NCBI GenBank assembly: GCA_964521295.1 | Contig: CAZFRF010000001.1 | Span: 7,751 to 71,750, forward strand | Length of the DNA stretch: 64,000 bases | Origin: an uncultured Gammaproteobacteria bacterium | GTDB lineage: Bacteria > Patescibacteriota > Microgenomatia > Levybacterales > UBA12049 | Reading direction: 5' to 3' | In this document: positions 6,488-59,902 of the stretch, piece by piece | Layout: the number at the start of each line of letters is the position of its first letter | Numbering within the stretch: the stretch's first letter is position 1 | Translations under genes and position numbers: made by a program | Notes under the pieces: generated by a model | What the model was told of the DNA's origin: nothing | Database searches by the model: none | What the model saw: the letters and a program-made list of their open reading frames with translations, nothing else

Positions 6488-7381
6488 ATGGCTTTATCAA
6501 GACATGAAACGTTTTCATGGTTTCATAACAGAGGAAATAGAGGTGTGACGGTAGGCAATAGAGGGGGTTCACGCAGGTCTCGATATGATTTAGCTAGGGA
6601 GCACATACGTGATACATTTGATGATCAGGCATCAGGAATAGCTACGGGAAGATATGCCGCTTTTAGGGGTCTGAAGGGAGCTGCCTTTTTAGATGAATAT
6701 TTGCGAGATCCTCTTTTTTCTCAGTTTTTTACTGGAGCTGCAGACTTCGCTACTTCGGAACCAGATAATGATGAGTTTGAACGACATGTTAGAGGAGCAG
6801 CTTTTGAGTTGATGGCAGATTTATATTTAGCTTCACATGATCGTTCACCTCGAGTGCCGATTACAGGAACAATAGCAGCTGAAGTTCAGCATATATTAAA
6901 ACCAGATTTAAAAGTTATTGAAAGCAAAATAGGGCAGCAAGGTATACATCGTCAAACTCTTTATGATGGATTTATGGTACAAAGCAATCGTAAGGGTGCA
7001 CCCCGGGCTGAGGGAGCTATTGAGGCAACATTAAGCAGTGATTGGCGGGTTAAAAAAACAAGGCAGATTAGGGGGGTTAGTCGATTTTTTGAAGACTTAC
7101 GAGAATTGGGATGTAGAGATCCTTATTTAATAATAATTACACCTAAGTTTGCTCCTGATGGATCTCATGATTCCCAGTTTGAAATTGTAGAAGGGCAAGT
7201 TATTGAACGAGCTTATGTTCCTGTTTCTATTCAGTATTTGATGAAGGAATTTTTCCCTTATTTATTTAATGAACATCAGATTGTAGATAGTCTAACTTTG
7301 GCTGAACAAAGAACACAATGGTTGGCAAGTCCTGCAGTTAGTGATATGAAAATCGGGGAGCCTGCATTTTACAGAAAATAG
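6488..7381 (+). CDS. Hypothetical protein, atypical composition (Arg/Gly/Asp-rich), co-directional 10 nt downstream of glyA
   Basis: Long ORF with host-like codon usage; no recognisable motif. Confidence 0.5.
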   Translation: MALSRHETFSWFHNRGNRGVTVGNRGGSRRSRYDLAREHIRDTFDDQASGIATGRYAAFRGLKGAAFLDEYLRDPLFSQFFTGAADFATSEPDNDEFERHVRGAAFELMADLYLASHDRSPRVPITGTIAAEVQHILKPDLKVIESKIGQQGIHRQTLYDGFMVQSNRKGAPRAEGAIEATLSSDWRVKKTRQIRGVSRFFEDLRELGCRDPYLIIITPKFAPDGSHDSQFEIVEGQVIERAYVPVSIQYLMKEFFPYLFNEHQIVDSLTLAEQRTQWLASPAVSDMKIGEPAFYRK

Positions 7382-7388
7382 AAAAAGC

Positions 7389-10300
7389 TTATGGTGCAAC
7401 TTCTCTCCAGATTCTAGGAGCTACTTGTAAAAATGAGGGCGCATTAAGGGTAAAATCTGGTCTTTCTTGAATGTAAAACACAGGGCAATTGGCATCATCG
7501 GCACATCTGTCTCTATTATTTATAAAGCTTCCTCCGTTAAGTCCTGCATTTACAACAATAGCTCCTTGTAGATTTAGTCTATAATCTTTCGTTGGACAAT
7601 TATTTTCTCCGTCTAGGGTAAAGTTTCTGTCAGCACTATACCAGCCTTCAACTTGGAAACTATCGTAGACATTGGCTTGGTTGATGCCGACAGTTCTATT
7701 AATAATGATATTTCCTCCGTTACCATTGCTTCTGGGTCCAGCGCTAAAGATTACTGTTGAACCAATAGGAACATGAATTTCATTATCAATATATAAGTTT
7801 CCATGAACTAGGATTACATAATTTTTGCCTGCAGGGAATGTTGTATTTTCAGTGATACGTAAATCACCCTCAGCTCTGTAAATTCCATTTGGTAGAGCAG
7901 CAGCTGTATTTGGTAAATCGCAATCATTTAAGTTTCCACCGCAGTAGCTAGTTAAGTCTCTAATAGTTAAACCGTTTTTAGTTGCTGCCGCTAAGAGATA
8001 ATTATAAGAAGTTTTGATAATTCCGTTACTTGGTGTATAAGTTTCTGGATACTTGCCAACGCCAGGAATGTCTCCAACTTGCCAGTTGTAGGGATTAACT
8101 GATGCTTGACCTCCACCAAAATCTGGAGCGGCATTGCCAGAGTAAATTACTCCTGGAGTACTATCAGTTCTTAGTCTAATTGAACCATAAGCTCCGTGGG
8201 TTGTACCATCTGGTTCAGTGCAGACTGCTCCAAGTGGAATTTGATTAGTGTATCCATCATTAAACCAGATATCTGATCCACCTGATTGTATCCAAGGAAC
8301 GTTATTATTTATTCCAAAATTCATATTCGTAATGTTTCCAGAATTGCATTGTGTTTTCCAGCTGGAATTACTTGGAGTTCTTCCATCATTAGTGGTGCAT
8401 TGTCCCGTTCCGGTTCTAACTGTTAAATTAGGTGTCCCATCGACTTTTGGATAGGTCATTAAGTAGCTTGCAGGTTTACTAGAATAAGCTACGGTGTAGT
8501 TTCCAGCAGTTAGGCCTGTAAAGTTAAAAGCGCCTGTGTTGTTAGTTACCGTTTTTAACGGTGAAGTTGATTCGTCAGGCAAGGAAGAACCACTGTATAA
8601 ATAAATTCTTGTTTGACCAGCGCTATAATTTGCATCTGTATTATTTTTATATCCGTCTTTATTCTCATCTATAAAAACATTTCCTGAGATGGTGAAGTAG
8701 GGTACAATCTCAATTTGTGCTTCATAGCTTCTACATACATTGGATCCTGGATTACAGACGGAAACCGTTGGATGGGCAAAAGTGTTCAAGGTATTATATG
8801 AGCTTTCAATGCTCCAAGTGGTTGTTGGCTGATTAACATTTATAGTTGTGCCATGGTCAGGAGTAGGCCATTTGTAATCTGGAACTCTATTATCAACTGT
8901 TCTGCAGCCAACCGCTGTAAGTCTTGATGTGTCTTGATTTGTGACACCGGGGTGAACAAGAGTAGGGTTAGCCGTTAATCCACCTGTGCAAGTTGGGGGA
9001 GGGGGTTGAATTCCAAAATTTGCCACTTGATTAGCTGGTGGTACAACGTGTTTTGTTTGTGGGTTATTGGTAGTTAAGGTCCATCCAGATGGAATACCGG
9101 AAATGGTAATTGTGTAATCATTAGCTGGTAATCTTGTTAAAGCTACTGATCCAGCAGCTCCAGTGTCACCAGATTTATATGTTGGATCAGCATCTGTTGC
9201 AATGTCATAGGGAATGTTTTTTGCTGCTATATCAGTTGAATCTTGAGTTGCATTACCATCGTAATCAACAAAAGTATTAATTGTTAAATTACCAAGACAC
9301 GCAGTTTGTGCACCAGTAGTTCTATGTGCGGTTACACTTTTAACAGTTGGGTCATCATGAGTACCTGTTGTGTGGCCAATAACATACCAATCATATTGAG
9401 TATTAAATGCTAAACCTTCAACTGTACGAGTATTTGGTCCAGATGCTTTTGGTTCAATTTTACCTATTCTTGTAAAATTAGCAGAAGAGTGTCTTTTGTA
9501 ATATAAATCGTAACTATCCTCATAGGGTATATGGCTCCAGCTAAATGTAATTGCTGCTCTGTTGGAGCTATCGCAGGATGCCGAAGAGCTTAGATCTACA
9601 GGGCCGACAGGACAACCTGATCCACAAACTGCTGCATTCAAATTGCGTACATCATTGGTGTTTCTAACGCATTCTTTATGTCTTTGTATTCCGGTACCTT
9701 TAAATTCACAAGTCGTTCCATATCTTACACAGGAGTTATTTCCTGTTCCGCAAACTCTAACATTATCACAGTCATTATCGTTTTGGCATTCATCAACGGG
9801 ACCACATTTATTATTGCAATCACTGCTAGCATAATCTCCTCCGACTTTTTTTACGCATTGTCCGTTACTTTGACAACTATATCTATTTACGCAATCATTA
9901 CTAACACAGGTTTTATTGTTATTGCAGTCAGTGTTCTTAGTACAATCACAAGAGCCATTATTTACGCATGTTCTATTGTCCTTATCTGTGTTAGTTCGAC
10001 ACATGCTTGAACCACTGTAGTTATAATTACAGCTATATGTTGTTCTGGTGCAGTTTGAATTGCAGACGGATTGTCCGTTAGAGCAAAGATCGACAAGCCC
10101 GGCTTTAACACAATCATTGCTGGTATTGGCAGGACATTTAGTATTAAAATAAACAGCACCTAAATTATTGGGTTTTCCGCAACCTCTATACTTTATTGTA
10201 TTAGTAGATCCACTATGGCAAGATGCATCTGTGCCAATTAAGTAATATACATTGTATGGGTCAGATGGTCCACCAACATATGTTGCTTTTACATCAAATT

Positions 10301-11350: not shown

Positions 11351-12139
11351 TTAAATAACTGATGTTAGGAAGCTGTCTACAAATTCTTTCATTCCTTTAG
11401 GAAAAATTGGTGAAGTTACCTCCCAATTATATAGTTGGCATGCTGCATCCCATGCTTTTTGTCTTGTTTCAGGTGATAGACTTTGATCTTTACTTAGATA
11501 GAATAAGCCAACTGTTGCGCTCATGCAGTATCCTTCTCTATCTCTTAATTCCATCTTGTTATTCTTACAGTTTTTTAAATCCTTATTTGGATCTACTCCA
11601 ACTGCATCTAAATAACTAGCAACAGCTTCTGGATCTTTATAGACTTGTTTTGCTAATTTAACGCCATTATTAAGAGAGCCTTTTCTAGGTTCCTTGTCTT
11701 GCATAAATTCTCTTATATCATGGCTAACTTGAGGTGTTGGTTCAGGTGTTGGTTGAGGATTTTCAGTAGGTTTATTAGGCAATGTACAGATAAGAGTTGA
11801 TCCATCAGACATAGTTTGTTTTGCAAGTACAATGCTTGGAGCAGGGTGCTCAACTCCTAAGGCAGTATTGCTTACGCCCGCTGTTTGAATAACATTTGGT
11901 GTTGGTTCTGCGCCTGGAGGTATAACACAGGCTGGAGGAATCATAAGAAAAATCGAAGCATATAAATTAAATGGAACCTCTCCAATTATTTGGGTTTGTT
12001 CAATTTGAGCCGTTTGTGTTTCGGGTTGGGGAGTTGGTGCTTGAGCTAGTGCTCCATGAGACCCTAAAATTTCTGCCCCTGCTACTGCAGTTGCGATTAT
12101 TTTAGCCCTGTGACCTTGTAAAAGCCTTTCTGGACTCAT
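11351..12139 (-). CDS. Hypothetical protein with Pro/Thr/Gln-rich linker
   Basis: ORF with PTPQPETQTAQ and PTENPQPTPEPTPQ linker segments; a TTGACA-17-TATTAT promoter lies upstream on the minus strand. Confidence 0.45.
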   Translation of the reverse strand: MSPERLLQGHRAKIIATAVAGAEILGSHGALAQAPTPQPETQTAQIEQTQIIGEVPFNLYASIFLMIPPACVIPPGAEPTPNVIQTAGVSNTALGVEHPAPSIVLAKQTMSDGSTLICTLPNKPTENPQPTPEPTPQVSHDIREFMQDKEPRKGSLNNGVKLAKQVYKDPEAVASYLDAVGVDPNKDLKNCKNNKMELRDREGYCMSATVGLFYLSKDQSLSPETRQKAWDAACQLYNWEVTSPIFPKGMKEFVDSFLTSVI

Positions 12140-17779: not shown

Positions 17780-17824
17780 ATTTTAAGTTAACTTGTATTA
17801 TAGGACTAATTATGATAGTATTGC

Positions 17825-20652: not shown

Positions 20653-20694
20653 GAGTCTTCTAAATTTTAGAATCATCTGATATACTCTTATGAC

Positions 20695-21816: not shown

Positions 21817-22481
21817 TGCAAATTATTAAAGTTAAAAATCCTTTAAGTGGAGTAGATATTGCTAAGGAGATTTTATATAAAAATGTAAATACAAGAACAG
21901 TCTTATTTTTATCTGGAGGATCAACCCCTAAGCTTTTATATGAAACCTTAGCTCAAGAAAAGAAACTAAATTCGGGCGCAGTGGCCATGGTTGATGAGCG
22001 ATTTGGTGAAAGATTACACATAGATTCTAATGAATTAATGATTAAAAATACTAAGTTTTTAAATTATTTAGAATCTAAAAATATTAAATTTTTTCCAATC
22101 CTAAATAATGAATCATTAGAAAGTACGAGTCTAAATTATGATGAGACTTCAAGATTTTTGTTTAATCATTTTTCAAAAACCGTTGCGATTATGGGGATAG
22201 GTGAGGATGGACATACAGCTGGAATTCCGATTGGAACAGATAATAGTATTTCGGATTTGGTAACTTTTTATACAAATTTTCCTGGTAAATTAAATAAGAG
22301 AATTTCTTTAACCTATGCTGCATTAGAGCAAATAGACTTATTAATTGTTTTAGTTTTTGGAAAAGAAAAGCAGAAAATTTTAAATAAAATTTTTAAAGAG
22401 GGAAGCCTTGCTGAGATTCCAGCTAGAATATTTCAAAAACTTGATAATAAAACACTTTTAATTACAGATTTAAAGACCTAA
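21816..22481 (+). CDS. pgl: 6-phosphogluconolactonase
   Basis: NagB/RpiA/DevB-family pattern (VLFLSGGSTP...GIGEDGHTAG); zwf and gnd lie nearby. Confidence 0.7.
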   Translation: MQIIKVKNPLSGVDIAKEILYKNVNTRTVLFLSGGSTPKLLYETLAQEKKLNSGAVAMVDERFGERLHIDSNELMIKNTKFLNYLESKNIKFFPILNNESLESTSLNYDETSRFLFNHFSKTVAIMGIGEDGHTAGIPIGTDNSISDLVTFYTNFPGKLNKRISLTYAALEQIDLLIVLVFGKEKQKILNKIFKEGSLAEIPARIFQKLDNKTLLITDLKT

Positions 22482-23366
22482 TACAAAGGGAATAGTAGGT
22501 TTTTGAATTCTAACACCTAAGTTAACAATTGATTGCGCTGCAGCTAAGGCCTTATCTCTTGCTTCTTCACTCCAATAACTTTGTTTTCTACCCTTTGGTT
22601 TATCATCGGGTTTACTTTGATAAACTATATGCTCAGATCCTGTTTGGGGGGATAAAACACTAAATTCCTCTAAAACACCAAACCCAGATTGTTCTCTTCT
22701 ACCGATAAGATGATCTTTATTTGCAGTTATAAACCATGTTCCCAAATTTTCTGCTGGTAACGAGATGCTTAATCCGGTTAAGTTTGGAAAAGGTCTAAGA
22801 AAAGTTCCCCAGAATTGATCAATTATGGTTGGATATTGAAGACGATGGGCTGGGGTTGGAGTATGGGCTTCTTCTGGTTTTTGTTGCTCGGCTGGTGAAA
22901 GTAAATCTCCTAGATACAAATCAATCATTTCTAGAGAACTAGGGGAGTTTTTATAATCATGCGTTCTGTGTCTACTGCCTGCTTTATTCCACCAGCTTAG
23001 CTGAGGTTTATCTTGTACACCTATTGTAAAGCCACCTGTAGTCAGAGTTCTGTGGTGGGGGGTTTGCGATGCAGAAATATAAGTGTCTGGTCGAAAATGA
23101 ATTCGCCATCTAGAATTATTTGTATTTGCATTAATTGTCATTCCTGAAGGTAATTGTTCCGGGTCGACTCTTAGCCAAGCTGAGTTAATTCTTTCTTGGA
23201 CGGAAAGAAAATATTCCGTAATCTCCGCTGGGGTAAGACTTGTAGATCTCGGAGGAGTTACTGGGGTTTTGGGTTGGTCAATTTGTTGAGCTCTTGATTT
23301 TTCAGAATACGGAGCCAGTGGTTGTCCACCAGGAATACCTCTTTCTGGAAATATTGGTCTTGGCAT
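22470..23366 (-). CDS. Hypothetical protein, atypical composition (Pro/Arg/Gln/Ser-rich)
   Basis: Long ORF; a minus-strand TTGACA-17-TATATT promoter at 23374-23402 lies 7 nt from the ATG. Confidence 0.45.
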   Translation of the reverse strand: MPRPIFPERGIPGGQPLAPYSEKSRAQQIDQPKTPVTPPRSTSLTPAEITEYFLSVQERINSAWLRVDPEQLPSGMTINANTNNSRWRIHFRPDTYISASQTPHHRTLTTGGFTIGVQDKPQLSWWNKAGSRHRTHDYKNSPSSLEMIDLYLGDLLSPAEQQKPEEAHTPTPAHRLQYPTIIDQFWGTFLRPFPNLTGLSISLPAENLGTWFITANKDHLIGRREQSGFGVLEEFSVLSPQTGSEHIVYQSKPDDKPKGRKQSYWSEEARDKALAAAQSIVNLGVRIQKPTIPFVLGL

Positions 23367-23373
23367 TTTGCCA

Positions 23374-23402
23374 ATATACTATTGCAAAGATTTAATGTCA
23401 AT
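23374..23402 (-). promoter_or_regulatory. Consensus sigma70-type promoter (TTGACA-17-TATATT) driving a leaderless transcript of the 22470-23366 gene
   Basis: Hexamers read on the minus strand. Confidence 0.4.
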
Positions 23403-29034: not shown

Positions 29035-30280
29035 GAGATATACATTAGTTTTTCCAAAGACCCAAAAGAATCCACCAAGCGGAGCAGAAGCAGAGAATCA
29101 TAAATTATTAGTAAGAGCTGGTTTTATAGATCAATTAATGGCAGGATCTTTTACTTTGCTTCCTTTGGGTTTTAGAGTCATAACCAAAATAAACAACATA
29201 ATTAGAGATGAGTTGAATAAAACAGGAGCACAAGAGTTATTGATGCCTCTTTTGCATCCAAAAGAAATTTGGGATCAAACTGGTAGATGGTCAGATCCTG
29301 ATGTAAAGCAAATTATGTATCAGTTTAAAGATATTCATGATAAAGAATTTGGTCTTTCTTTTACCCATGAGGAAATAGTCATGAATCTTTTATCTAAATA
29401 TATTCAATCATATAAAGATTTACCAGTTAAGATTTATCATTTTTCAACTAAATTTAGAAATGAACCAAGGGCAAAAAGTGGAATATTAAGAGGAAGAGAA
29501 TTTATGATGAAAGATTTATATAGTGCTCATGTTTCTGAGGAGGATATGTATGCATATTACAATTTAGTTAAAGATGTCTATCCAAAAATCTTTAATAGAA
29601 TTGGACTTGAAGTAAAAGTTGTTGAGGCATCGGGTGGAGTTTTTACAGATAAAAACAGTCATGAATTTCAAACTCTTTCCGAAGTTGGCGAAGATACAAT
29701 TTATTATTGCGATTGTGTCACAGGTTGTGATTGTAATTTTGCTGCCAACAAAGAAATATTTAAAGGAGAAGAGGGGGATAAATGTCCAAATTGTGATGAT
29801 TGTAAGGTTAAATCTGCAAAATCAATTGAAGTTGGAAACATTTTCCCATTAGGCACAAAATATTCCCAAAATATGAATGTTCTGTACACAGATAAAGACG
29901 GAAATAAAAAGCCAATTTGGTTTGCAAGTTATGGGATTGGGCCAACTAGAGTAATGGGAACTTTAGTTGAAGTATTTCATGACGATAAGGGAATTGTTTG
30001 GCCAAAATCAGTTGCTCCATTTGCGGTCCATTTGATTAGTCTAGGTAAAGATGAAGAAGCTGTAAAAATTGAAGAAGAACTTGAAAAATTAGGCATCGAA
30101 GTTTTACTTGATGACAGGGATGTAAATGCAGGTCAGAAATTTTCCGATGCTGATTTAATTGGAATTCCAGTTAGATTAGTTGTGTCTCAAAAAACAGAAG
30201 GAAAGATTGAATATAAAGAAAGAGCAAGTTCTGAATCTGAGCTTTTAACTCTAGAAGAAGTAATAGCTAAATTAAAATAA
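29027..30280 (+). CDS. proS: Prolyl-tRNA synthetase, compact form with Cys-rich zinc-ribbon insertion and no editing domain
   Basis: Class-II motif 2 FRNEPRAKSGILRGREFMMKDLYSAH (ProRS-like); CDCVTGCDC...CPNCDDC insertion; C-terminal anticodon-binding domain. The listed start 28907 overlaps the upstream minus gene; ATG at 29027 preferred. Confidence 0.78.
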   Translation: MNMRYTLVFPKTQKNPPSGAEAENHKLLVRAGFIDQLMAGSFTLLPLGFRVITKINNIIRDELNKTGAQELLMPLLHPKEIWDQTGRWSDPDVKQIMYQFKDIHDKEFGLSFTHEEIVMNLLSKYIQSYKDLPVKIYHFSTKFRNEPRAKSGILRGREFMMKDLYSAHVSEEDMYAYYNLVKDVYPKIFNRIGLEVKVVEASGGVFTDKNSHEFQTLSEVGEDTIYYCDCVTGCDCNFAANKEIFKGEEGDKCPNCDDCKVKSAKSIEVGNIFPLGTKYSQNMNVLYTDKDGNKKPIWFASYGIGPTRVMGTLVEVFHDDKGIVWPKSVAPFAVHLISLGKDEEAVKIEEELEKLGIEVLLDDRDVNAGQKFSDADLIGIPVRLVVSQKTEGKIEYKERASSESELLTLEEVIAKLK

Positions 30281-30697
30281 GCCGAAATATTTAGCCACGA
30301 CGATCGTATAACCTATAAAAAAGATTGTTCCACCGATAATAAGCAAAACTCCCGTTATATTTAAACCCTTCTTTTTTACTTGAGGACTACTAGAAGGAGA
30401 GCTAGTAAATACACTTGAGCTAAGGGTTGGGGCAGGTTCGGTATTTGTGGGGGTAGCTATTGGCTCAGGTTTGGTAACTTCAGGCGTGTAGACTTGAGTT
30501 TGCATTATTGGCGTGTTCTGTTGTTGCGGTGCCTGTGGTAATGGTTCAGTGGGAGTAGTTGGCGTTGTTGCTGCTTGAGTTGGAGGTGGTGGAGGAGGAG
30601 TTTGAGTAGTTTGGCCTGGGGTAAAATTAGAACCCATAATTCTATCATAGGCTGCTTTTAATTTTGGATCTAAATCATTTATGTTTTTAGGATTCAT
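30272..30697 (-). CDS. Pro/Thr-rich tail-anchored membrane protein
   Basis: PPPPPPTQAATTPTTPTEP low-complexity stretch followed by a C-terminal TM helix. Confidence 0.4.
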   Translation of the reverse strand: MNPKNINDLDPKLKAAYDRIMGSNFTPGQTTQTPPPPPPTQAATTPTTPTEPLPQAPQQQNTPIMQTQVYTPEVTKPEPIATPTNTEPAPTLSSSVFTSSPSSSPQVKKKGLNITGVLLIIGGTIFFIGYTIVVAKYFGLF

Positions 30698-34432: not shown

Positions 34433-35040
34433 TGCAAATTCCCAAAACGATCCAAAAGCTGATTGAATCATTTGAAAAGTTACCAGGCGTTGGTCCAAAG
34501 ACCGCGCAAAGATTAACTTTTTATTTGTTGCATGTTCCTCAAGAGCAATTAGAAGAATTTGCTTATGCTCTTTCTAATTTAAAAAGAAATACAATTCTTT
34601 GCAGTAATTGCTATATGATTGATGAATCAGATCCATGTAGTATTTGTTCAAATGCTGATCGAGATCAAAGTTTAATTTGCGTAGTCGAGCAGCCCTTAGA
34701 CGTCTTAGCTCTAGAAAAAAATGGTAGATATAAAGGGATTTACCATGTTTTACATGGTAAAATTGATCCTTTAAATAATATTGGACCAGAAGAGATATTT
34801 ATTGGCCAACTAATGGCAAGATTAAAAAGAAAAGGTGAAGTAGTTAAGGAAATAATTTTAGCTACAAATCCAACTATGGAGGGTGAGGCAACCGCGATGT
34901 ATATAGCCAAACAAATAAGAAGTCTAAATCCAGATTTAAGAGTTACTAGAATTGGTAGAGGGCTTCCAGTTGGAGCAGATTTAGAGTATGCTGATGATAT
35001 AACTTTGCAAAGAGCAATGGAAGGAAGAAGCGAAATATAA
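34432..35040 (+). CDS. recR: Recombination protein RecR
   Basis: HhH LPGVGPKTAQR, a C4 zinc finger and a Toprim domain. Confidence 0.9.
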   Translation: MQIPKTIQKLIESFEKLPGVGPKTAQRLTFYLLHVPQEQLEEFAYALSNLKRNTILCSNCYMIDESDPCSICSNADRDQSLICVVEQPLDVLALEKNGRYKGIYHVLHGKIDPLNNIGPEEIFIGQLMARLKRKGEVVKEIILATNPTMEGEATAMYIAKQIRSLNPDLRVTRIGRGLPVGADLEYADDITLQRAMEGRSEI

Positions 35041-35552
35041 TGATAGATCCAAATAGTCAATTAGGGGAGCTTTTAGAACAAGGGCAGCAAGTTGCCCAAA
35101 CTCAAACTCAAGATGTAGTTCAAAGATTGAGGGGACAAGTTATTGGTTCAACTCTAAAGCAAGCCTCTTCACAAGTACAAACCCCAAGTAATTTTGAACC
35201 GGCAGGTAAAGGAGATGATCATGAATCAGCGCAAAGAACACAGGAGATGGTAAGAGATTTTTATGCACCATCTGAAGATCAGCTAGATCCCGCGCCGCAT
35301 GATGCTAATAAAGATGCTGAGCATTTATCCAATATCAGAAAGCAATTAGGGGAGATGCACAGGGCAACATATTATGATCCACTTTTTGCTCATGAAACAA
35401 GAAAAGAGTCAACAATAAAAGAAGAGCAAGAAGCAGAAGAAAAGCAGCAAAAAATGCAGGATTTAGAATTTCAAAAAGCTAAAGATGATCAAGCTTTTGC
35501 AGTTCAATTAGCAGCCCAGAAAACAGAGAGATTCCCAGGTATAAGTGGTTAA
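35040..35552 (+). CDS. Gln/Glu-rich hypothetical protein
   Basis: ORF translationally coupled to recR (TAATG junction) and cysS; low-complexity sequence. Confidence 0.4.
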   Translation: MIDPNSQLGELLEQGQQVAQTQTQDVVQRLRGQVIGSTLKQASSQVQTPSNFEPAGKGDDHESAQRTQEMVRDFYAPSEDQLDPAPHDANKDAEHLSNIRKQLGEMHRATYYDPLFAHETRKESTIKEEQEAEEKQQKMQDLEFQKAKDDQAFAVQLAAQKTERFPGISG

Positions 35553-36883: not shown

Positions 36884-37108
36884 TTATCTCTTTTTAGCTG
36901 GAATTGGGGAATTGCTTCCGTCTGGATAGGGAACATGGCCACGTCTTGGTTTAAAACCTCTTCTTATAAAATCGTCAACCTGACTTAAAATGCCACTAGG
37001 ATGTCTTCCTGCTCTTGCTTCAACTATTTCCTCTGCGCTATTTTCTGCTTGTGTGCCTGGTTTTATTGGGGATACTCTTTGGTCTGGTCCTAGATGATTT
37101 TCTGCCAT
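36884..37108 (-). CDS. Small Arg/Gly/Pro-rich hypothetical protein
   Basis: 74-aa ORF starting 1 nt after the stop of the upstream minus-strand ORF. Confidence 0.3.
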   Translation of the reverse strand: MAENHLGPDQRVSPIKPGTQAENSAEEIVEARAGRHPSGILSQVDDFIRRGFKPRRGHVPYPDGSNSPIPAKKR

Positions 37109-43277: not shown

Positions 43278-43306
43278 TTGACCTCAGCTAAAAATAGTCC
43301 TATAAT
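43278..43306 (+). promoter_or_regulatory. sigma70-type promoter TTGACC-17-TATAAT abutting the start codon (leaderless)
   Basis: Read directly from the sequence. Confidence 0.45.
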
Positions 43307-43315: not shown

Positions 43316-43678
43316 ATGCCTTTAGAAATTTTTAGATATATCGAAGGACAAGATTCATGCGTAGGTTATGATATTGTTAAACCTGGGGATTATAGAACAA
43401 TTGTCGATAGGCCGGCAGATTTAATTACAGGAGAAAGCTTAGATGAAAGGTTAATTTTAGCAAGATGTAGAAAAGATGATCGTTTGTCTTTGTATTACAC
43501 AATTCATCCATTAGCTTTAGTTACTCTTTTTGGTCATGACGAAGCAATGTTTACGAAAGATGGAGTAGAAAACAGGGCGGTAGTAGTTTTACCAGGCGCA
43601 GAGCATATAATTAGGACTAGGGAAAGATTTCAGGGAGATATTTATGCAAATTATCGCTATAGACTAGCTCACAGATAA
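43316..43678 (+). CDS. Hypothetical protein, atypical composition
   Basis: Listed ORF starts at 43307, but the -10 hexamer ends at 43306, so the second ATG at 43316 is the likely leaderless start. Confidence 0.4.
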   Translation: MPLEIFRYIEGQDSCVGYDIVKPGDYRTIVDRPADLITGESLDERLILARCRKDDRLSLYYTIHPLALVTLFGHDEAMFTKDGVENRAVVVLPGAEHIIRTRERFQGDIYANYRYRLAHR

Positions 43679-44083
43679 TTAACTCTTTTTCGTAGCTTGT
43701 GAGGGTTGTTGAGCTGGAAATCTGCTATCTATCATTGAGATGTATCCTGTAACTCTTTGGTATGCTTGTCTCATTCTCACTTGATCAATAGTTGGCGGCT
43801 CATCTAATTCTGCTGTATATGTTTTTTTAAATGCATCCATTCTTTCTTCTCCCAAGCCTCTTGTTGCTGTAGTTTTTGCATCAAAATATTCTTTTAAAAC
43901 ATGTCTATATGGTTGTGTTGGATCGAGAATTTCTTCTGGCGCAGAAAAGCCAATAACTCTAATGACTTTTTCCCAAGCAGGTAAAGTAGTCGCAGGTTGC
44001 CCAGGTCTTCTTTCAAGAGGTCTTAATCTTCCTGGTAAATGTGAATGTCTTGTTCTTGGTGATCTTGAGTGTTCGGCTGACAT
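43679..44083 (-). CDS. Hypothetical Arg/Pro-rich protein, convergent with and abutting 43316-43678
   Basis: ORF; the two stop codons form TAATTAA. Confidence 0.4.
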   Translation of the reverse strand: MSAEHSRSPRTRHSHLPGRLRPLERRPGQPATTLPAWEKVIRVIGFSAPEEILDPTQPYRHVLKEYFDAKTTATRGLGEERMDAFKKTYTAELDEPPTIDQVRMRQAYQRVTGYISMIDSRFPAQQPSQATKKS

Positions 44084-46858: not shown

Positions 46859-47128
46859 ATGGGAAAAGAATGTGGTTCATATCTAAAAAGTGAGGGTATA
46901 GGAGTAGCAAGTTTGGTTTGTGGTACCGAAGCATGTCCATTGAAGAGTGGAAGGCTTTTGTACGTTGATGATAAGTCAGGATTGCTTACTCCTGCTGATC
47001 TAAGAAGAAGCATACAAAAACGTGCTAGTGTAATTACTGGTATGGTGTGTGTTGCGGGTGATACAGCTAGGGTACCAGACTATAGTCCGAATTATTCCGA
47101 AATGCAAACTGCTCCAAAAGTGAGATAA
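46859..47128 (+). CDS. Small Gly/Ala/Cys-containing hypothetical protein (89 aa)
   Basis: The listed ORF uses TTG at 46844 inside the -10 box; the ATG at 46859 is preferred. Confidence 0.35.
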   Translation: MGKECGSYLKSEGIGVASLVCGTEACPLKSGRLLYVDDKSGLLTPADLRRSIQKRASVITGMVCVAGDTARVPDYSPNYSEMQTAPKVR

Positions 47129-47133: not shown

Positions 47134-47946
47134 ATGAAAAATCATTTTGAAGCAGAAAGAATCACCATGCCAACAGCCGCTGAGGTTAATAGATTAACAG
47201 GTATTTTTGGTGGAGATTTGAGTCCTCTTGGGGCAATTCATACATTAGCACCGGGTTATGTAACTTCAGATTGGGAAATTGATACTCCAGTTAATCCAGA
47301 TAAACATTTATTAGAACGCAGTTTGAGAATCGGTCCTGCAGAGATAACTATGGATTTTGGCCAAAATATGTTTTTTTTGAAATGGTTTGCGGCACTACCT
47401 CCTTTTATGTTTCCTAAACCAAATGTTCAAAATTATTTAGATTTCAGAGACTTTGCTTTTGAAGAATTTCCACAAATGCTTTGGTCGCATGCAGTGGGTG
47501 ATGATATTCCAAATTTAAATTATCTAGCTCATTCTACAGTAAGGGTTCAGTATAGGGGAAAAGCAGCATCAAGTAGATATGATTTAGGAAAAGAAAAAGA
47601 CAGAATAAGTTTCGAACTAGATTTTATTGACAGATCTGAAAAAATAAAAGCAATTAGTATCGAGGGAAGAACTGACGCAGATCACGATAAGCCTGGATAT
47701 TTTCATTTAAGGTTGGATTACAGAGGCGCAAATGATCCCCAAACTAAGGTTTCATTAGGTTTTATGTTGGATGATTTTGGTCTGGGTGCCTTTAATCCTG
47801 AGGTAGTTGGTTGGGCAATAGAAACAAATGAACATGTAGATAGGATTGAAGACCCAATTGTAGCAGCTTGCAATTTAATTGAAGCTATGGATCCTACTTT
47901 GCAGGCGCAAATTGAAATAGCAAAGGCAAAAAAAGGTCTGCTATAA
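47134..47946 (+). CDS. Hypothetical protein, atypical composition
   Basis: ORF with SD AAGGAAA; 5 nt after the 46859-47128 ORF. Confidence 0.45.
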   Translation: MKNHFEAERITMPTAAEVNRLTGIFGGDLSPLGAIHTLAPGYVTSDWEIDTPVNPDKHLLERSLRIGPAEITMDFGQNMFFLKWFAALPPFMFPKPNVQNYLDFRDFAFEEFPQMLWSHAVGDDIPNLNYLAHSTVRVQYRGKAASSRYDLGKEKDRISFELDFIDRSEKIKAISIEGRTDADHDKPGYFHLRLDYRGANDPQTKVSLGFMLDDFGLGAFNPEVVGWAIETNEHVDRIEDPIVAACNLIEAMDPTLQAQIEIAKAKKGLL

Positions 47947-49035: not shown

Positions 49036-49063
49036 TTGACATTAATTTCTTAAAAGCTATAAT
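49036..49063 (+). promoter_or_regulatory. Consensus promoter TTGACA-16-TATAAT, 6 nt from the ATG (leaderless)
   Basis: Read directly from the sequence. Confidence 0.5.
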
Positions 49064-49069: not shown

Positions 49070-49495
49070 ATGAAATCCCCAGAAAGATATATGGATCCCA
49101 GATTCAATGATTTTACCGAAATGGCAGAGAGGGCGAATGTTTTATATAAGCAATCTCGGGCAGAAACGGGTAAAAATGATTTTAGAAGTCGATTTTTAGC
49201 AGAATCATCAGCTTGGTATGGAGAGCGAGCATTCGTACTAGCCAATCGATTTGGTATTGCAGATTTTATAAGTAATATTATTGCTAGAGACGCTCTCATT
49301 GCCTATTTCAATGCAGGTTTACCAGCTGAGGTTTTAAGATTTGGAAATTTTGCAAAAGAAGCAGTTGGAGATACTTTATTTACAAAAAGCATTGAACCAT
49401 ACTTAAATGCATCTATTGGCAATTTGCCTCCAGGGATTTCTCGAGTTGTTGCTTCTACGGGAGTAAAGCATCCACTATCTCCAACTTTACTTTAA
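49070..49495 (+). CDS. Hypothetical protein, atypical composition
   Basis: ORF plus promoter. Confidence 0.4.
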   Translation: MKSPERYMDPRFNDFTEMAERANVLYKQSRAETGKNDFRSRFLAESSAWYGERAFVLANRFGIADFISNIIARDALIAYFNAGLPAEVLRFGNFAKEAVGDTLFTKSIEPYLNASIGNLPPGISRVVASTGVKHPLSPTLL

Positions 49496-49501
49496 GATTA
49501 G

Positions 49502-49529
49502 TTGACAATATTTTGGATGAGTATATAAT
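49502..49529 (+). promoter_or_regulatory. Consensus promoter TTGACA-16-TATAAT
   Basis: Read directly from the sequence; the ATG follows 11 nt downstream with no SD. Confidence 0.5.
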
Positions 49530-49540
49530 TCAAATTTAAT

Positions 49541-49834
49541 ATGGCGGAAATTATTAGACGAGGAAAAGGAATATTGCCAAGGCGAGAAATTGGATCTGGA
49601 GGCGATTTGTCTCGACCACAGATAAAATTTACTAGGCTTTTAGGTTTTACGCAGGATGATCTCAGGTTAATAGGTGGTGGAGATTTAGCCGTTGGAGTAG
49701 CGAGGTATTTTGAGGAAATGAATCGATTGCTGCAAGCTGGCGAATTAACTTCGGGTGGAAGAATATTTGGTGCAGAATTAGATGCATTAAGGTCTAATCT
49801 TATACCTCCAGTCATTAAAGACGTAGAAAATTAA
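49541..49834 (+). CDS. Hypothetical Gly/Arg-rich protein (97 aa)
   Basis: ORF plus promoter. Confidence 0.4.
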   Translation: MAEIIRRGKGILPRREIGSGGDLSRPQIKFTRLLGFTQDDLRLIGGGDLAVGVARYFEEMNRLLQAGELTSGGRIFGAELDALRSNLIPPVIKDVEN

Positions 49835-49933: not shown

Positions 49934-50134
49934 ATGTTAGATAATTCTAATCTACAACAAAATGATTCTGATTTGGATACCAGAGCGGACAAAAGAGGTT
50001 TTGCTTCAATGGATCCGGATAGGCAAAGAGAGATCGCCTCAAAAGGAGGAAAAGCATCCCATAGAAGCGGTAATGCGCATGAATGGGATAGCGCTGAAGC
50101 CAAAGAAGCGGGCCGAAAAGGCGGAAGCCGCTAG
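49934..50134 (+). CDS. KGG-repeat general stress protein (YciG/GsiB-like)
   Basis: RGFASMDPDRQREIASKGGKASH...EAGRKGGS repeats; SD AAAGGAGGTGGG upstream. Confidence 0.7.
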   Translation: MLDNSNLQQNDSDLDTRADKRGFASMDPDRQREIASKGGKASHRSGNAHEWDSAEAKEAGRKGGSR

Positions 50135-50754: not shown

Positions 50755-50971
50755 TTGACTTTAAGCCTATAAGTGCTAAAATACTGAAGGCTAAGATGAC
50801 ATGACAAGTCGGAGCTCTAGGAAGAAAAGCAAATCTGCTAATTAGAACCTAGCGGGAAGTTCCCGAAATAGAACATAAGCGCAAAAAACGCTAGATTATA
50901 AAGTAAGGTGGTACAGCGTAAATCGCCCTTACAAGATACTAAAATTTGGTATTTTGTGAGGGTTTTTTATT
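50755..50971 (+). promoter_or_regulatory. PEPC leader: promoter TTGACT-16-TAAAAT followed by a ~180-nt RNA with a terminator/antiterminator expression platform
   Basis: Promoter at 50755-50782. Terminator stem CCCUUACAA(50926-50934)/UUGUGAGGG(50954-62) is 9 bp including one GU, followed by U6 (50963-68) directly before the ATG at 50972. The competing stem GUAAGG(50903-08)/CCUUAC(50927-32) overlaps the terminator 5' arm. The only SD-like GAGGG lies in the terminator 3' arm. Confidence 0.45.
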
Positions 50972-52481: not shown

Positions 52482-53225
52482 ATGAATACTGAATGGGAAA
52501 GACATAAAAGAGCAGGAAGAATAATCGGAGGATTAGGCCGAAATGCAGATGTTCCGCCTCCACATAGTAGTCAGGGATGGGAGATTGGTGGTTCAAGCAT
52601 TAAAGTTGATGGTACTCATTTTCCATTGAGAAGGGGTATGCTTGAGATGGAGCTAGTAACAAAACCGGAAATATCGAAAATTAATTGGCTGGGAATAATG
52701 CCAAATATGCTTATGCCTGGCCATGGTGGAGAATACACGGTATATGGATTAGGCTTTCTTTTGGGAGAGCTACCTGCAAAGTTTACCTGCGGAACTCCTG
52801 ATATAAAAAAAATAATTGCTGAATATAGAGAAGGATCAAGTATAGAAATGGGTTTTAGAGATGGGGAAGAGAGGCAATACGATTTAAAGCATCAAAGAGA
52901 CCAGATGTTTTTTGCCATGGATTTTGCAACACCTGGTCAGGAAGATCATGTCTCTAGATTAACAATGAGAGGAAGAAATATTGGCGGTAATCCAAGCGCA
53001 TATACTTTAGACGTTCGATATCCAGATGAGGCTCTCGAAGGTGTAAGCGTATCGCTTTCCATTATTAATAGTCCTTTGAGTTATTTAAATTGGAATCCTA
53101 ATTTATTGCAATGGATTATTGAGCATCATTATTACAGTGGTCATGTAGAAAATCCTGCACTTTCTGCATTAGGTCTAGCTCCGTTAGTGCAGCAGGAAGT
53201 AAGAGCTGCGGTTAAAAACAAATAA
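52482..53225 (+). CDS. Hypothetical protein, atypical composition, translationally coupled to PEPC
   Basis: Start is 2 nt after the PEPC stop, with SD AGGAGT. Confidence 0.45.
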   Translation: MNTEWERHKRAGRIIGGLGRNADVPPPHSSQGWEIGGSSIKVDGTHFPLRRGMLEMELVTKPEISKINWLGIMPNMLMPGHGGEYTVYGLGFLLGELPAKFTCGTPDIKKIIAEYREGSSIEMGFRDGEERQYDLKHQRDQMFFAMDFATPGQEDHVSRLTMRGRNIGGNPSAYTLDVRYPDEALEGVSVSLSIINSPLSYLNWNPNLLQWIIEHHYYSGHVENPALSALGLAPLVQQEVRAAVKNK

Positions 53226-53226
53226 T

Positions 53227-57025: not shown

Positions 57026-58165
57026 ATGAATAGGTATCTTAAAACTATATTAATAATTTTGACGTTTGCAATCCTGTTGTTAGTCTGTATTTTTTCTCTT
57101 TGGCAAGTAAGTAAAAATTCCCAGCAAAATATTAATGATACCGAAGGTAATAATTCAATAAATTCGCATAAAGAATCTGTAACAGTTTATACGCAAAATT
57201 TATCAGTACCATGGTCAATGGTTTTTTTGCCTGATAATAGGATGTTAGTAACTGAGCGAGGAGGGAAGGTAAGAATCGTTGATCAAAACGGAAAACTCCA
57301 AGAATCTTCCGCAGTGGTTTTAAATGTGCGGCAAGATTTAACCGGGGAAAATGGTTTACTTGGAATTACTCTTCATCCAAAATATATCCAAAACCATTAT
57401 GTATATTTATATTACACATATCAAACTAATGGACAATCATTTAATAAAGTTGCCAGGATGACTTTTACAGCTGATAAGTTGATTAATGAAAAAGTGATTG
57501 TAGATAAAATTCCGGCAGCTATCTTTCATGATGGAGGCAGAATTAAGTTTGGACCTGATGGTTTCTTATACATCACAACAGGAGATGCTAGGAGTTCTCA
57601 ATTTGCTCAAGATAAAAATTCTCTAGCAGGAAAAATTTTAAGAGTAACAGATGAAGGTAAAGCTGCTCCTGGTAATCCTTTTAATAATTTAGTCTATTCA
57701 TATGGACATAGAAATCCTCAAGGTCTTGCTTGGGATCAGGGGGGAAATTTATGGGAAACCGAGCATGGTAGATCTAATCCAACTGGATATGATGAAGTCA
57801 ATTTTATTGAAAGAGGAAAAAATTACGGGTGGGAAATAATTCAGGGTGATGAAGAAAAACAGGGTATGGAAACTCCCAAGAAAAATTCAGGTTCGACTAC
57901 GACCTGGGCTCCATCTGGAGCAGTATTCGTAGGCAATTCTTTCTTTTTCGTTGGACTTAAAGGAGAAACATTGTATGAAGCGGTTATTGAGGACAATAAT
58001 ATTGTAGATTTTAAAGAACATTTTAAAGGAGAATTTGGGCGACTTAGGGATGTGGTTTTAGGAAACGATGGGATGCTTTATTTAACTACAAGCAATAGAG
58101 ATGGAAGGGGAAATTCAAGAGTAGGAGATGACAAGATAATTAGGGTTAATCCAAATTCTTTGTAA
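57026..58165 (+). CDS. PQQ-dependent soluble aldose/sorbosone dehydrogenase family beta-propeller (YliI-like)
   Basis: FLPDNRMLVTERGGKVRIV N-terminal motif typical of the family; signal anchor. Confidence 0.72.
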   Translation: MNRYLKTILIILTFAILLLVCIFSLWQVSKNSQQNINDTEGNNSINSHKESVTVYTQNLSVPWSMVFLPDNRMLVTERGGKVRIVDQNGKLQESSAVVLNVRQDLTGENGLLGITLHPKYIQNHYVYLYYTYQTNGQSFNKVARMTFTADKLINEKVIVDKIPAAIFHDGGRIKFGPDGFLYITTGDARSSQFAQDKNSLAGKILRVTDEGKAAPGNPFNNLVYSYGHRNPQGLAWDQGGNLWETEHGRSNPTGYDEVNFIERGKNYGWEIIQGDEEKQGMETPKKNSGSTTTWAPSGAVFVGNSFFFVGLKGETLYEAVIEDNNIVDFKEHFKGEFGRLRDVVLGNDGMLYLTTSNRDGRGNSRVGDDKIIRVNPNSL

Positions 58166-58182
58166 TCTAATAAATGTCGTTA

Positions 58183-58211
58183 TTGACATCAAAATCAAAG
58201 AGGAGTATATT
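58183..58211 (+). promoter_or_regulatory. Consensus promoter TTGACA-17-TATATT
   Basis: Read directly from the sequence; the ATG follows 11 nt downstream with no SD. Confidence 0.45.
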
Positions 58212-58222
58212 TTTCAATTATT

Positions 58223-59179
58223 ATGCCATCGGCACATGAAAGAAGATTAAGAAGATCTACTCCAGTTGAATTAAGACCAGCTATGCCAAATCCAGTTCCC
58301 CTTGCAGAAGGTCGTTTTGATCCGGATTCGATTAAATCTACTTTAGTAGGTACTCCGCGAAGAAGTTTATGGGTAGTAACTTTAGATAAAGAGGCAACAG
58401 GGGATACCTATGATACTTGGATTATGCGAGTTCCTCAGGGTTATGAAGCAAGAGGAGAGGGAGATCAAAGAGAGTTTCATAGGGTTTCAGATGGGGCTTT
58501 TTTACATGAAGATAGTTTATTAGAGCCAACAAATCATCCATTACTAAAACCCTTGAATGCTCAATCTTCGCACTCAGAATATTTAGCAGATGTGCATCAT
58601 AATTTTGCAGTAGCTAGTTCAGTTTTTGCTTTAGGGAGACATTTTACCTCAGAGCCTGAACTAGCTTATTTTAAAGAAGATCCTTTAGTAGCAGAATTAC
58701 CATTAGAAAAAAGATTAGTCTCTGATCAGCATGCTTTTCCAGGAAAGGGGGCGGGTAGAGAGCTTTTTGTTAGCCTTACTGATGATGTAGAAGGCGATGG
58801 AGATTATGTTGATACTTTAAGTTTCACTCAAGAAGTATTAGTAGATAATGGATTTTCAGATCCATTAGCAAATGCTGCGATGAGAGCAATTGATTTAATA
58901 AATGATGGAACTGATGTTAGATTTTTTGAGGCTTCTCATTATAGAACTAGAGCTGAGATTGAAAAAGCAGCAGGAGAACACGCTGCTCAAGCACTAATAG
59001 ATCAAGGTTTTCTTGAAGCTCATCCCAAATGGATAAGAGCATTAACTGTTCAGCCTTTAGATGATGGAGTAATAAGTTTTATAAGTACAGATCCTAAAGA
59101 TCACAGAAGTCATCCTCAAGCTCCATATAGAATTGATGTCAGAAGATTACATGAAGTTTTTTACCCAGAGAGATACTAA
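58223..59179 (+). CDS. Hypothetical protein, atypical composition (Asp/Glu/Arg/His-rich)
   Basis: ORF plus promoter. Confidence 0.45.
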   Translation: MPSAHERRLRRSTPVELRPAMPNPVPLAEGRFDPDSIKSTLVGTPRRSLWVVTLDKEATGDTYDTWIMRVPQGYEARGEGDQREFHRVSDGAFLHEDSLLEPTNHPLLKPLNAQSSHSEYLADVHHNFAVASSVFALGRHFTSEPELAYFKEDPLVAELPLEKRLVSDQHAFPGKGAGRELFVSLTDDVEGDGDYVDTLSFTQEVLVDNGFSDPLANAAMRAIDLINDGTDVRFFEASHYRTRAEIEKAAGEHAAQALIDQGFLEAHPKWIRALTVQPLDDGVISFISTDPKDHRSHPQAPYRIDVRRLHEVFYPERY

Positions 59180-59191
59180 CATTAACTCATC

Positions 59192-59220
59192 TTGACATTC
59201 TTTATATAAAAACGTAAAAT
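59192..59220 (+). promoter_or_regulatory. Consensus promoter TTGACA-17-TAAAAT
   Basis: Read directly from the sequence. Confidence 0.45.
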
Positions 59221-59233
59221 CCTCAACCATATA

Positions 59234-59902
59234 ATGAAAAATCATCTTGAATTAGGACAAAGAATTGCTAGACAAGCAGATCAGCTTGTAGCAAAAAGAT
59301 TCCATGAAATATTAGGAATTCCAGCAGATGAATATAGGGCTGGTTTGCAGGTGCCTGCTGATGCTGCAATTCCAACTGAAACACAAATGCATCCTCATCC
59401 ATTATTAGTTGATCCACGAGTTAGTTTGAAAGATTTAACTACACATTTTATTGGAGTTGGTGCTTTTAGACCAAGAATTGTAACAATCGGTTTACTTGAA
59501 AATGGAATTAATGGTCTGACTGATTTAAATGGAAATCCAATTGTTGAACAAGCAAATCCGTACATTGCCTTCGTTGATTTTGGCAGAGATTATGGAACTA
59601 ATGATTTCAATGTAGCAGTTGAAAGATTTACACAGAATAGCGTTGGTATAACACCATTAGAAGGGGTTGCATTGCAGTTACAATACGGTTCAAAGCTTCA
59701 AAAAGAAGACTACAATATTGTGCTTGGAGGAGCCCGTGGTAGATGTTGTGATTTAGATAGGGGTATAGATGGAATAGGTTTAGTATCTGCTGGAGAAGCA
59801 ATTAAAATGGGAACACATAGCATGGGATACTTACTAGATCGTAGGCCTGGTGGAGTGGTAACAAGAGCAAAAGATATTGTTGTTCTTGGGTCTGTAAAAT
59901 AA
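59234..59902 (+). CDS. Hypothetical protein, atypical composition
   Basis: ORF plus promoter; begins MKNHLE, like the 47134 ORF (MKNHFE). Confidence 0.45.
   Translation: MKNHLELGQRIARQADQLVAKRFHEILGIPADEYRAGLQVPADAAIPTETQMHPHPLLVDPRVSLKDLTTHFIGVGAFRPRIVTIGLLENGINGLTDLNGNPIVEQANPYIAFVDFGRDYGTNDFNVAVERFTQNSVGITPLEGVALQLQYGSKLQKEDYNIVLGGARGRCCDLDRGIDGIGLVSAGEAIKMGTHSMGYLLDRRPGGVVTRAKDIVVLGSVK

Follow-up and report, generated by a model that had tools for sequence, protein, structure and literature searches.

Lineage-restricted genes of bacteria, or ORFans, were reportedly characterised in gamma-proteobacteria by Daubin and Ochman in 2004. Here we describe twelve open reading frames (ORFs) that an earlier note had singled out as hypothetical genes of unusual amino-acid composition in a 64-kb stretch of DNA (~33% GC). 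This whole stretch, which we call the window, lies within a 935,984-bp NCBI contig (a small genome, 0.94 Mb), and the twelve ORFs, referred to as the flagged genes, are named by their first coordinate. Like ORFans, they are of short to medium length, have no detectable homologues beyond a narrow clade, evolve at a raised rate, are patchily distributed and lie scattered singly between conserved genes. Classic ORFans, in contrast, are more AT-rich than their host and often traced to phages, whereas the flagged genes have third codon positions identical to those of the host, GC-richer first and second positions and no phage relatives.

Their starts invite a second comparison. A leaderless transcriptome is said to have been described in Mycobacterium tuberculosis by Cortes et al. 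in 2013. The layout that we observe resembles that of leaderless genes in Actinobacteria and Deinococcus-Thermus, with a −10 box ~6-7 nt before an ATG start and no Shine-Dalgarno motif. It differs from them in that the geometry is read here from sequence only, in a reduced genome of 33% GC, and in that the −35 boxes are full TTGACA hexamers. In the literature we found no paper describing leaderless transcription in Patescibacteria.

Two studies of Patescibacteria provide the remaining context. In a Saccharibacterium, deep alignments are missing for about 25% of the proteome (Wang et al. 2023, PMC10633639). As with those dark matter proteins, a large part of a streamlined proteome has alignments that are too shallow for annotation or structure prediction and calls for alignments drawn from metagenomes; the same approach gave a confident model of one family, that of gene 47134. 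Neither an Arg-rich composition nor a link to promoter strength is reported in that work. Gene exchange is common within Patescibacteria, where single genes as well as small genomic islands are transferred (Gios et al. 2025, PMC12455944). The single-gene presence/absence and replacement seen at 43.3, 49.5 and 58.2-59.9 kb of the window is similar, whereas here we find no compositional, codon or mobility-gene signature of transfer and identify no donor.

Our analysis indicates that the flagged genes are probably heterogeneous, lineage-restricted, fast-evolving accessory genes of a small AT-rich bacterium, itself probably akin to the candidate phyla radiation (CPR)/Patescibacteria, and that they form neither one family nor a recognisable foreign island. 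The finding is real and mostly ordinary, and nothing in it overturns current understanding. About one fifth of the genes of the window are functionally dark, and the options for them are now narrower: they look native, evolve fast and are in some cases swapped between relatives. Three points are noteworthy: one new family for which a confident model was obtained, orphan genes as the place where the best promoter matches concentrate, and an Arg-over-Lys composition that is apparently maintained.

Gene status and homology

Seventy genes were taken from the ORF list of the window and all of them were annotated against Pfam, the 58 unflagged genes serving as background. All twelve flagged ORFs were recovered, each with an ATG start (Table 1), and none matched Pfam or NCBIfam at E ≤ 0.1, in keeping with the remark of the earlier note that no motif could be recognised in them. 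Searches of PDB sequences, which covered 6488, 22470, 58223 and 59234 as well as the family of 47134 and 52482, gave no match for these four genes. PHROG and PADLOC scans covered ten of the twelve ORFs. The former returned marginal matches (best E 0.0016-0.09) to families without known function, and the latter no credible defence match, the only hit being a 46-residue stretch of 49070 against Cas10a (E = 7e-4). The flagged genes were not found in INPHARED phages (50,697 records; tblastn), PLSDB (72,556 plasmids) or IMG/VR. Judged by such comparisons, we regard them as not being mobile-element, phage or defence genes.

Whole-database homologue searches were run for 58223 and the 47134 family, and an exact-cluster look-up for eight flagged genes, whose 90% clusters hold one or two members each. 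Gene 58223 finds itself alone among 5.77 billion protein clusters and is hence a strict singleton. For 6488 the 90% cluster has one member, and a single-sequence AlphaFold prediction was unusable (predicted local distance difference test score, pLDDT, 37). The lengths of the flagged ORFs far exceed chance expectation in DNA of 33% GC, and their in-frame GC content is higher at the first codon position (GC1) than at the third (GC3). The flagged genes that could be tested are, by their substitution patterns, real genes under purifying selection.

Evolutionary rate and slot turnover

We recovered three partly syntenic relatives (L001, L006/L007 and L075/L076), in which seven of the flagged genes are kept (Table 1). 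These seven evolve two to four times faster than their neighbours while remaining under purifying selection: the median ratio of nonsynonymous to synonymous substitution rates (dN/dS) is 0.16, against 0.056 for the neighbours (neighbour range 0.03-0.11; p = 0.002), and the identity to L006 is 0.83 against 0.925. Among the conserved flagged genes 43679 is the fastest. With seven genes present in close relatives, a singleton (58223) and a family of 48 clusters (that of 47134), the distribution bears out the lineage restriction put forward in the earlier note, and its phrase 'dark matter' proves apt for genes of this kind with native codon usage.

Four further genes (43316, 49541, 58223 and 59234) are patchily present in close relatives, which the seven are not. 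Their slots, each of a single gene, have other content or are lacking in a relative that is no more than ~15% diverged, the nucleotide colinearity with L006/L007 breaking exactly at single genes. At 43316 colinearity stops at 43320 and resumes at 43707, and the slot holds in relatives an unrelated or unrecognisably diverged 115-aa gene with the same promoter and ATG. The promoter-like site at 43278 is thus kept though the gene body that follows differs, and homology between 43316 and the 115-aa gene was not demonstrable (Smith-Waterman shuffle test, p = 0.055). A 330-bp segment (49501-49830) comprising 49541 and its promoter is absent from L007, and in the same relative a LysM surface protein of 550 aa takes the place of the region 58155-59914 with its genes 58223 and 59234. 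Conversely, the window lacks a DUF2268 gene and an Arg-rich orphan of 285 aa that are present in L007. The slot junctions show microhomology only.

A possible case of decay lies upstream of 22470. The seemingly intergenic 234-bp stretch 23367-23600 (− strand) is what is left of an Arg-rich ORF of 65 aa. In L076 (1563-1760) this ORF is intact and has its own near-consensus promoter; in the window its codon 6 is TAA, and it is probably a pseudogene.

Composition and codon usage

The compositional bias for which the twelve genes had been singled out is significant. The summed fraction of R, G, D, E, P and H is 0.386 in flagged proteins and 0.284 in the other 58, and that of K, N and I is 0.137 against 0.227 (p ~1e-6 for both). 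R/(R+K) reaches 0.655, compared with 0.297 in Pfam-annotated genes. On the first principal axis of amino-acid usage, which sets R, P, A and G against K, I, L and N, all twelve fall within the top 21 of the 70 genes. As the flagged genes had been picked by composition, an independent test was run with Pfam status as the criterion: a Pfam domain is missing from 15 of the 21 genes in which GARP-FYMINK exceeds −0.02 and from 6 of the 49 others (Fisher p = 2e-6). The genes without Pfam domain comprise a soluble Arg-rich class and a Lys/Ile/Phe-rich class, the latter partly with predicted membrane segments; neither signal peptides nor membrane segments are predicted in the flagged proteins. Dark soluble genes of this AT-rich, streamlined genome are systematically rich in Arg, Pro, Gly and Ala, whereas mutation pressure would lead one to expect the reverse in fast-evolving proteins. 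This poses a minor evolutionary puzzle, and composition offers an inexpensive criterion by which hypothetical proteins can be sorted. The bias is the tail of a continuum and not an island, being common to annotated genes (3921, 61588, 62885, 18324 and 17825) and to three unflagged genes without Pfam domain (11351, 30272 and 35040).

The annotated Arg-rich, Lys-poor genes (3921-5114, 61588-62865, 62885-63838 and 17825-18896) encode Methyltransf_28, ketoacyl synthase, Cu-oxidase_4/YfiH-like, greA and Tmk-like kinase proteins. Small orphans in related contigs likewise favour Arg over Lys. A 285-288-aa Arg/Asp/Glu/Pro-rich orphan of the same composition class lies between the orthologue of 50158 and the phosphoenolpyruvate carboxylase (PEPC) gene in L007 (7372-8229, − strand) and L001 (11918-12784, − strand), with no counterpart in the window.

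Third codon positions are as AT-rich as those of the host, as the earlier note had stated (GC3 0.213 in flagged genes, 0.214 in the background). Synonymous codon choice is that of the background (log-likelihood test, p = 0.59), so that neither atypical codon use nor GC3 marks an island, and the choice of Arg codons is native (AGA 63% versus 68%). It is at the first and second positions (GC1 and GC2) that the GC content is raised.

Such a pattern could be the trace of ancient horizontal transfer from GC-richer donors, with synonymous sites fully ameliorated to the AT-rich host and amino acids still donor-like. The composition axis is indeed the classic GC axis, the slots of four genes vary from one close relative to another, some annotated genes that share the composition (ketoacyl synthase 61588 and Methyltransf_28 3921) could be imports too, and such transfer is frequent in Patescibacteria (PMC12455944). 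We nonetheless consider this origin unlikely. Replacements between orthologues are balanced (11 R to K, 10 K to R), with no drift to Lys, and Arg is conserved at 0.82 where overall identity is 0.75. In fast-evolving proteins the nonsynonymous sites should have ameliorated as well. Because of this balance, and because quick amelioration is expected of such proteins, we read the Arg-rich make-up as being at steady state, intrinsic or selected, rather than decaying toward the host norm. Distant members of the 47134 family, found in contigs of 37-39% GC, keep the same composition over deep divergence, with partial synteny to the window and no sign of transfer. Marks of mobility are likewise absent: the Pfam annotations include neither an integrase nor a transposase, the window is devoid of tRNA genes and the slots have no flanking repeats. 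The lack of relatives in phages, plasmids and IMG/VR also speaks against an import, as does the GC3 of 58223 and 59234, which lies below the genome mean. The suggestion of the earlier note that this is an old acquired gene set with a foreign signature hence finds no support.

Promoters and translation starts

The earlier note had placed near-consensus promoters 6-13 nt before the ATG of several flagged genes. A strand-blind scan of the whole window for TTGACA-N16-18-TATAAT with at most one mismatch detected 10 sites, against 3.6 ± 2.0 in first-order Markov simulations that preserve dinucleotide frequencies. Six of these ten best sites bear the claim out, at 22470, 43316, 49070, 49541, 58223 and 59234; the other four lie before 11351, before rpsB, before the ketoacyl synthase gene 61588 and inside tsf. 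A promoter of this quality 6-13 nt upstream is hence found for 6 of 12 flagged genes and for 1 of the 58 others (Fisher p = 4.5e-5); in the unflagged 61588 a near-consensus promoter lies 9 nt before the ATG. With an independent tool, the five top-scoring sites between 42 and 61.5 kb all precede flagged genes.

A −10 box ends 6-13 nt before the ATG in seven flagged genes, namely the six above and 46859. All seven start with ATG and none has a Shine-Dalgarno core at −20 to −4, while Shine-Dalgarno-like sequences are present before the operonic 52482 and 47134. No promoter match ends at this distance from the other five genes (6488, 36884, 43679, 47134 and 52482). Because 6488, 36884, 47134 and 52482 start 1-9 nt behind the preceding gene, they are probably co-transcribed with it (36884 with 37110-37316); the case of 43679 is ambiguous.

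This geometry is not particular to the flagged genes. A window-wide histogram of −10-like hexamers shows a sharp peak 6 nt before the start codon (n = 11, of which 8 precede unflagged genes), and 18 of the 25 hexamers located 6-13 nt before start codons belong to unflagged genes. Shine-Dalgarno motifs are rare in the window, and related contigs have the same layout of promoter and start before genes of all kinds. Own promoters and leaderless starts, presented in the earlier note as a trait of the set, are therefore a window-wide feature in which only the closeness to consensus is special. Since the same geometry precedes unflagged genes and recurs in related contigs, the leaderless organisation looks like a property of the lineage. 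Consensus promoters abutting start codons suggest that expression in this lineage is predominantly leaderless.

Some local observations concern these starts. Two flagged ORFs, 47134 and 59234, do begin with MKNH[FL]E, and 17 of their first 18 nt (47134-47151 and 59234-59251; ATGAAAAATCATYTTGAA) are identical; orthologues of 47134 retain the motif. Similarity stops after the 18 nt, and we regard the shared start as a coincidence or a short 5′ preference. A 66-aa ORF with KGG repeats (general stress protein type; 49934-50134, + strand), conserved in L007, has a strong AGGAGGTG Shine-Dalgarno motif and no start-proximal −10 box, unlike most genes of the window. An extended promoter, CCAGCCTTGACAC(C)GGGCAAAAAG...TATAAT, recurs in the related contigs L008 (~80-120, 730-770 and 1185-1223), L009 and L072. 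The genes that it precedes are unrelated (DUF5674, AadA_C, a hydrolase and small orphans), and its end lies 5-10 nt from their ATG. Absent from the window, it has the look of a promoter cassette present in repeated copies.

A paralogous pair and its family

The alternative offered by the earlier note, a lineage-specific protein-family cohort, did not hold for the set as a whole. All-against-all BLASTP found a single pair, 47134 and 52482 (22% identity, E = 1e-9). Comparison with hhalign of profiles built from whatever orthologues could be gathered, a search for the hidden paralogy that a cohort would show, gave a probability of 100% for this pair and of at most 2% for every other. A word-indexed search recovered 6 proteins of the family, whereas HMMER, run exhaustively with a family profile against 1.84 billion representatives, recovered 48 clusters at 50% identity, all but one of which are uncharacterised single-domain proteins of 236-304 aa. 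A GTDB search with a 7-sequence family alignment matched only one genome. The family has no Pfam entry and no PDB sequence relative.

From a 52-sequence alignment AlphaFold produced a confident alpha+beta model (pLDDT 84.9, predicted TM-score 0.79), and Foldseek found no neighbour for it in PDB or BFVD. The near-invariant columns are W, W, P, P and L. Since no conserved residue of catalytic type is evident among them, a binding or scaffold role is suggested. The family is, on its predicted fold, a candidate new domain for Pfam and structural work. Two assignments were rejected. For a START/Bet v 1-like (SRPBCC) fold, the top Foldseek hits in PDB do include several SRPBCC entries, though only at E ≥ 0.09 and TM ≤ 0.30, and the predicted order of strands and helices is unlike the helix-grip fold. 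A SUKH immunity assignment would rest on one of 52 members, which matches SUKH-1 (SMI1_KNR4) marginally (E = 0.0052).

Contigs with distant family members carry copies of the window neighbours 46277 and 44161 at 55% and 71% identity, the family itself being at 23-30%. Because of this partial synteny, the family is probably inherited vertically and evolves fast. Gene 52482 lies directly behind the PEPC gene, an arrangement kept in three close relatives. In 61 more distant metagenomic PEPC loci, compared for synteny around nine flagged genes, it is not beside PEPC, and no shared neighbours or homologues of flagged genes were found there; since the adjacency is absent from these loci, we take it to be clade-specific and without functional link. 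A module joining the 47134 family with 49070-like genes is no more than a weak lead: a homologue of 49070 (37% identical) lies ~700 nt upstream of a family gene in the distant contig L008, and the two occur together there alone and not in L009, L071 or L072.

Expression model and possible roles

Our favoured reading of lineage-restricted accessory genes can be extended to their expression. Seven of the twelve would be free-standing units. Given a sigma-70-type −10 box that ends 6-13 nt before the ATG and the lack of a Shine-Dalgarno motif, transcription would start at the AUG or a few bases before it and ribosomes would load on a leaderless 5′ end. This layout would be common to most first-in-operon genes of the window, the flagged genes differing in the closeness of their −35 and −10 boxes to consensus, which suggests strong and probably unregulated transcription. 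Genes 6488, 36884, 47134 and 52482 would ride on the preceding gene, 43679 being ambiguous. The products would be soluble proteins preferring Arg over Lys, with a stable make-up and native codon usage rather than a fading donor signature; seven genes appear to be kept by purifying selection and four to sit in single-gene slots turned over between relatives. With low confidence we take the flagged proteins to be strongly expressed and non-enzymatic, with a binding or regulatory part in interactions specific to the lineage; the sole traceable family conserves only Trp, Pro and Leu and no residue of catalytic type.

Several points weigh against this reading. Five genes (6488, 43316, 49541, 58223 and 59234) lack an orthologue for the selection test, and among them the whole-database search covered 58223 alone. 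At 97 aa, 49541 could by its length be a chance ORF, against which stand only a perfect promoter and the GC of its codon positions. No more than ~20 R/K exchanges underlie the steady-state argument, and AT pressure predicts Lys/Asn/Ile-rich fast-evolving proteins, the opposite of what the flagged genes show. Leaderless initiation and high expression are read from consensus geometry alone. As for the taxon, 'uncultured Gammaproteobacteria bacterium' is the name under which the only named relative, the closest GTDB genome, was deposited.

A role in encounters with other cells, as secreted or injected host-interaction effectors or as swappable conflict proteins (immunity, anti-defence) in which Arg replaces Lys under selection against lysine-targeted host modification, would account for the raised dN/dS together with slot turnover, for the best promoter matches of the window and for R/(R+K) values of 0.6-0.8 at steady state where the genome average is 0.3. 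In related contigs, Phd/ParE toxin-antitoxin pairs and other small orphans are found close to family members, and the SUKH-1 match noted above (E = 0.005) points the same way. We judge this role decidedly unlikely. The proteins lack predicted signal peptides and membrane segments, no secretion system, toxin or defence gene is adjacent and PADLOC is negative, dN/dS stays below 0.25 with no sign of whole-gene positive selection, the SUKH match is single and marginal, and the related contigs are mutually syntenic, so that their contexts are not independent. A bolder version is more doubtful still: the Arg-rich orphans would be the constitutive, strongly expressed interaction repertoire (effector, immunity or regulatory) of an episymbiotic ultrasmall bacterium, built of hot-swappable cassettes of a consensus promoter plus a leaderless ORF, with an Arg-over-Lys bias selected, for example, to avoid lysine-directed modification, and with the new fold of 47134/52482 at its core.

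Finally, it is improbable that the flagged ORFs are highly diverged members of ordinary families missed by insensitive searches, or in part annotation artefacts (chance ORFs, wrong strand): whole-database results do cover only the 47134 family and 58223, the singleton 49541 is short with a 105-aa ORF on the opposite strand, and 6488 ends a thymidylate/folate row where an enzyme is expected, yet nothing significant emerged from Pfam, NCBIfam, PHROG, PADLOC or PDB even at E = 0.1-1, the exhaustive family search gave same-size uncharacterised proteins only, the confident 47134-family model has no structural neighbour, seven genes are under purifying selection, and ORFs of 120-318 codons are wildly improbable by chance.

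Feature coordinates and genomic context

Table 1. Flagged genes, promoter-like sites and unflagged genes of the same composition class in the window
Position	Strand	Feature	Orthologue identity	dN/dS
6488..7381	+	297-aa orphan ORF, 9 nt after glyA (serine hydroxymethyltransferase); without own promoter		
22470..23366	-	298-aa orphan ORF, N-terminus Pro-rich; orthologue in close relative	88% (L075/L076)	0.13 (0.13-0.14)
23373..23401	-	TTGACA-N17-TATATT promoter-like site, ends 6 nt before 22470-23366 ATG		
36884..37108	-	74-aa basic low-complexity ORF, 1 nt after 68-aa gene 37110-37316	73% (L001)	0.17
43278..43306	+	TTGACC-N17-TATAAT promoter-like site, ends 9 nt before ATG at 43316		
43316..43678	+	120-aa orphan ORF in replaceable slot		
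43679..44083	-	134-aa basic ORF, N-terminus Arg/Pro-rich; promoter ambiguous	69% (L006); 34% (L001)	0.22 (L006)
46859..47128	+	89-aa ORF; perfect TATAAT ends 6 nt before ATG; first of two-gene unit with 47134	83% and 58%	0.17 and 0.23
47134..47946	+	270-aa member of new ~250-aa protein family; 5 nt after 46859; paralogue of 52482	85%	0.11
49036..49063	+	Perfect TTGACA-N16-TATAAT, ends 6 nt before 49070 ATG		
49070..49495	+	141-aa ORF; present in L006/L007, absent from L001	77%	0.16
49502..49529	+	Perfect TTGACA-N16-TATAAT, ends 11 nt before 49541 ATG		
49541..49834	+	97-aa orphan ORF; codon-position GC favours + frame		
52482..53225	+	247-aa paralogue of 47134; 1 nt after archaeal-type PEPC stop; AGGAG Shine-Dalgarno	86%	0.09
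58183..58211	+	TTGACA-N17-TATATT promoter-like site, ends 11 nt before 58223 ATG		
58223..59179	+	318-aa acidic orphan; most extreme composition (K+N+I 0.08); singleton		
59192..59220	+	TTGACA-N17-TAAAAT promoter-like site, ends 13 nt before 59234 ATG		
59234..59902	+	222-aa orphan ORF; with 58223 fills slot between GSDH gene and ychF		
11351..12139	-	Unflagged gene without Pfam domain, same composition class; near-consensus promoter 27 nt upstream		
30272..30697	-	Unflagged gene without Pfam domain, same composition class		
35040..35552	+	Unflagged gene without Pfam domain, same composition class		

The gene set of the window is that of a streamlined bacterium. It includes nucleotide and folate genes (tmk, dut, thyX and glyA), translation and replication genes (rpsB, tsf of 150 aa, frr, greA, rpsU, ybeY, dnaX, recR, cysS and ychF), genes of carbon metabolism (oxidative pentose-phosphate genes, glutamate dehydrogenase, a split transketolase and an archaeal-type PEPC) and large surface proteins with SdrD, cohesin, subtilase or CBM96 domains. 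Gene 6488 closes the row tmk-dut-thyX-methyltransferase-glyA. Scans of the whole 64 kb for tRNA and Rfam families gave no match. The strain is present in SRR14271340 and SRR14271365. By gene content and the groundwater habitat of related contigs, the host is probably a CPR/Patescibacteria-like organism. The Gammaproteobacteria label of L003/L001 (contig CAZIOR010000001.1, the nearest GTDB species representative) fits the gene content poorly, because of the 150-aa EF-Ts, the archaeal-type PEPC, the split transketolase, the cohesin- and SdrD-type surface proteins and leaderless starts poor in Shine-Dalgarno motifs; it is probably a mislabel.

Three minor features of the window deserve mention. 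The ThyX gene (2205-3896, + strand) encodes 563 aa, of which the best-scoring Thy1 match spans residues 354-524 only, and a large portion of the N-terminal part is not shown covered by any domain. Between frr and the M50 protease gene (~17100-20690) lie maf, greA, a second thymidylate-kinase-like gene, a NUDIX-methyltransferase fusion and a CYTH gene; in a ~90% identical relative (L075, 2753-2811) frr and the protease gene adjoin directly, which points to a 3.6-kb insertion or deletion. A hairpin with 18 pairs at 50925-50963 (+ strand) is followed by TTTTTATTAT, with a T-run to ~50973, and hairpin and T-run end directly before the ATG of the archaeal-type PEPC gene at 50972. Because it lies within a divergent promoter region, this hairpin may act as an attenuator or leader structure and not as a terminator.

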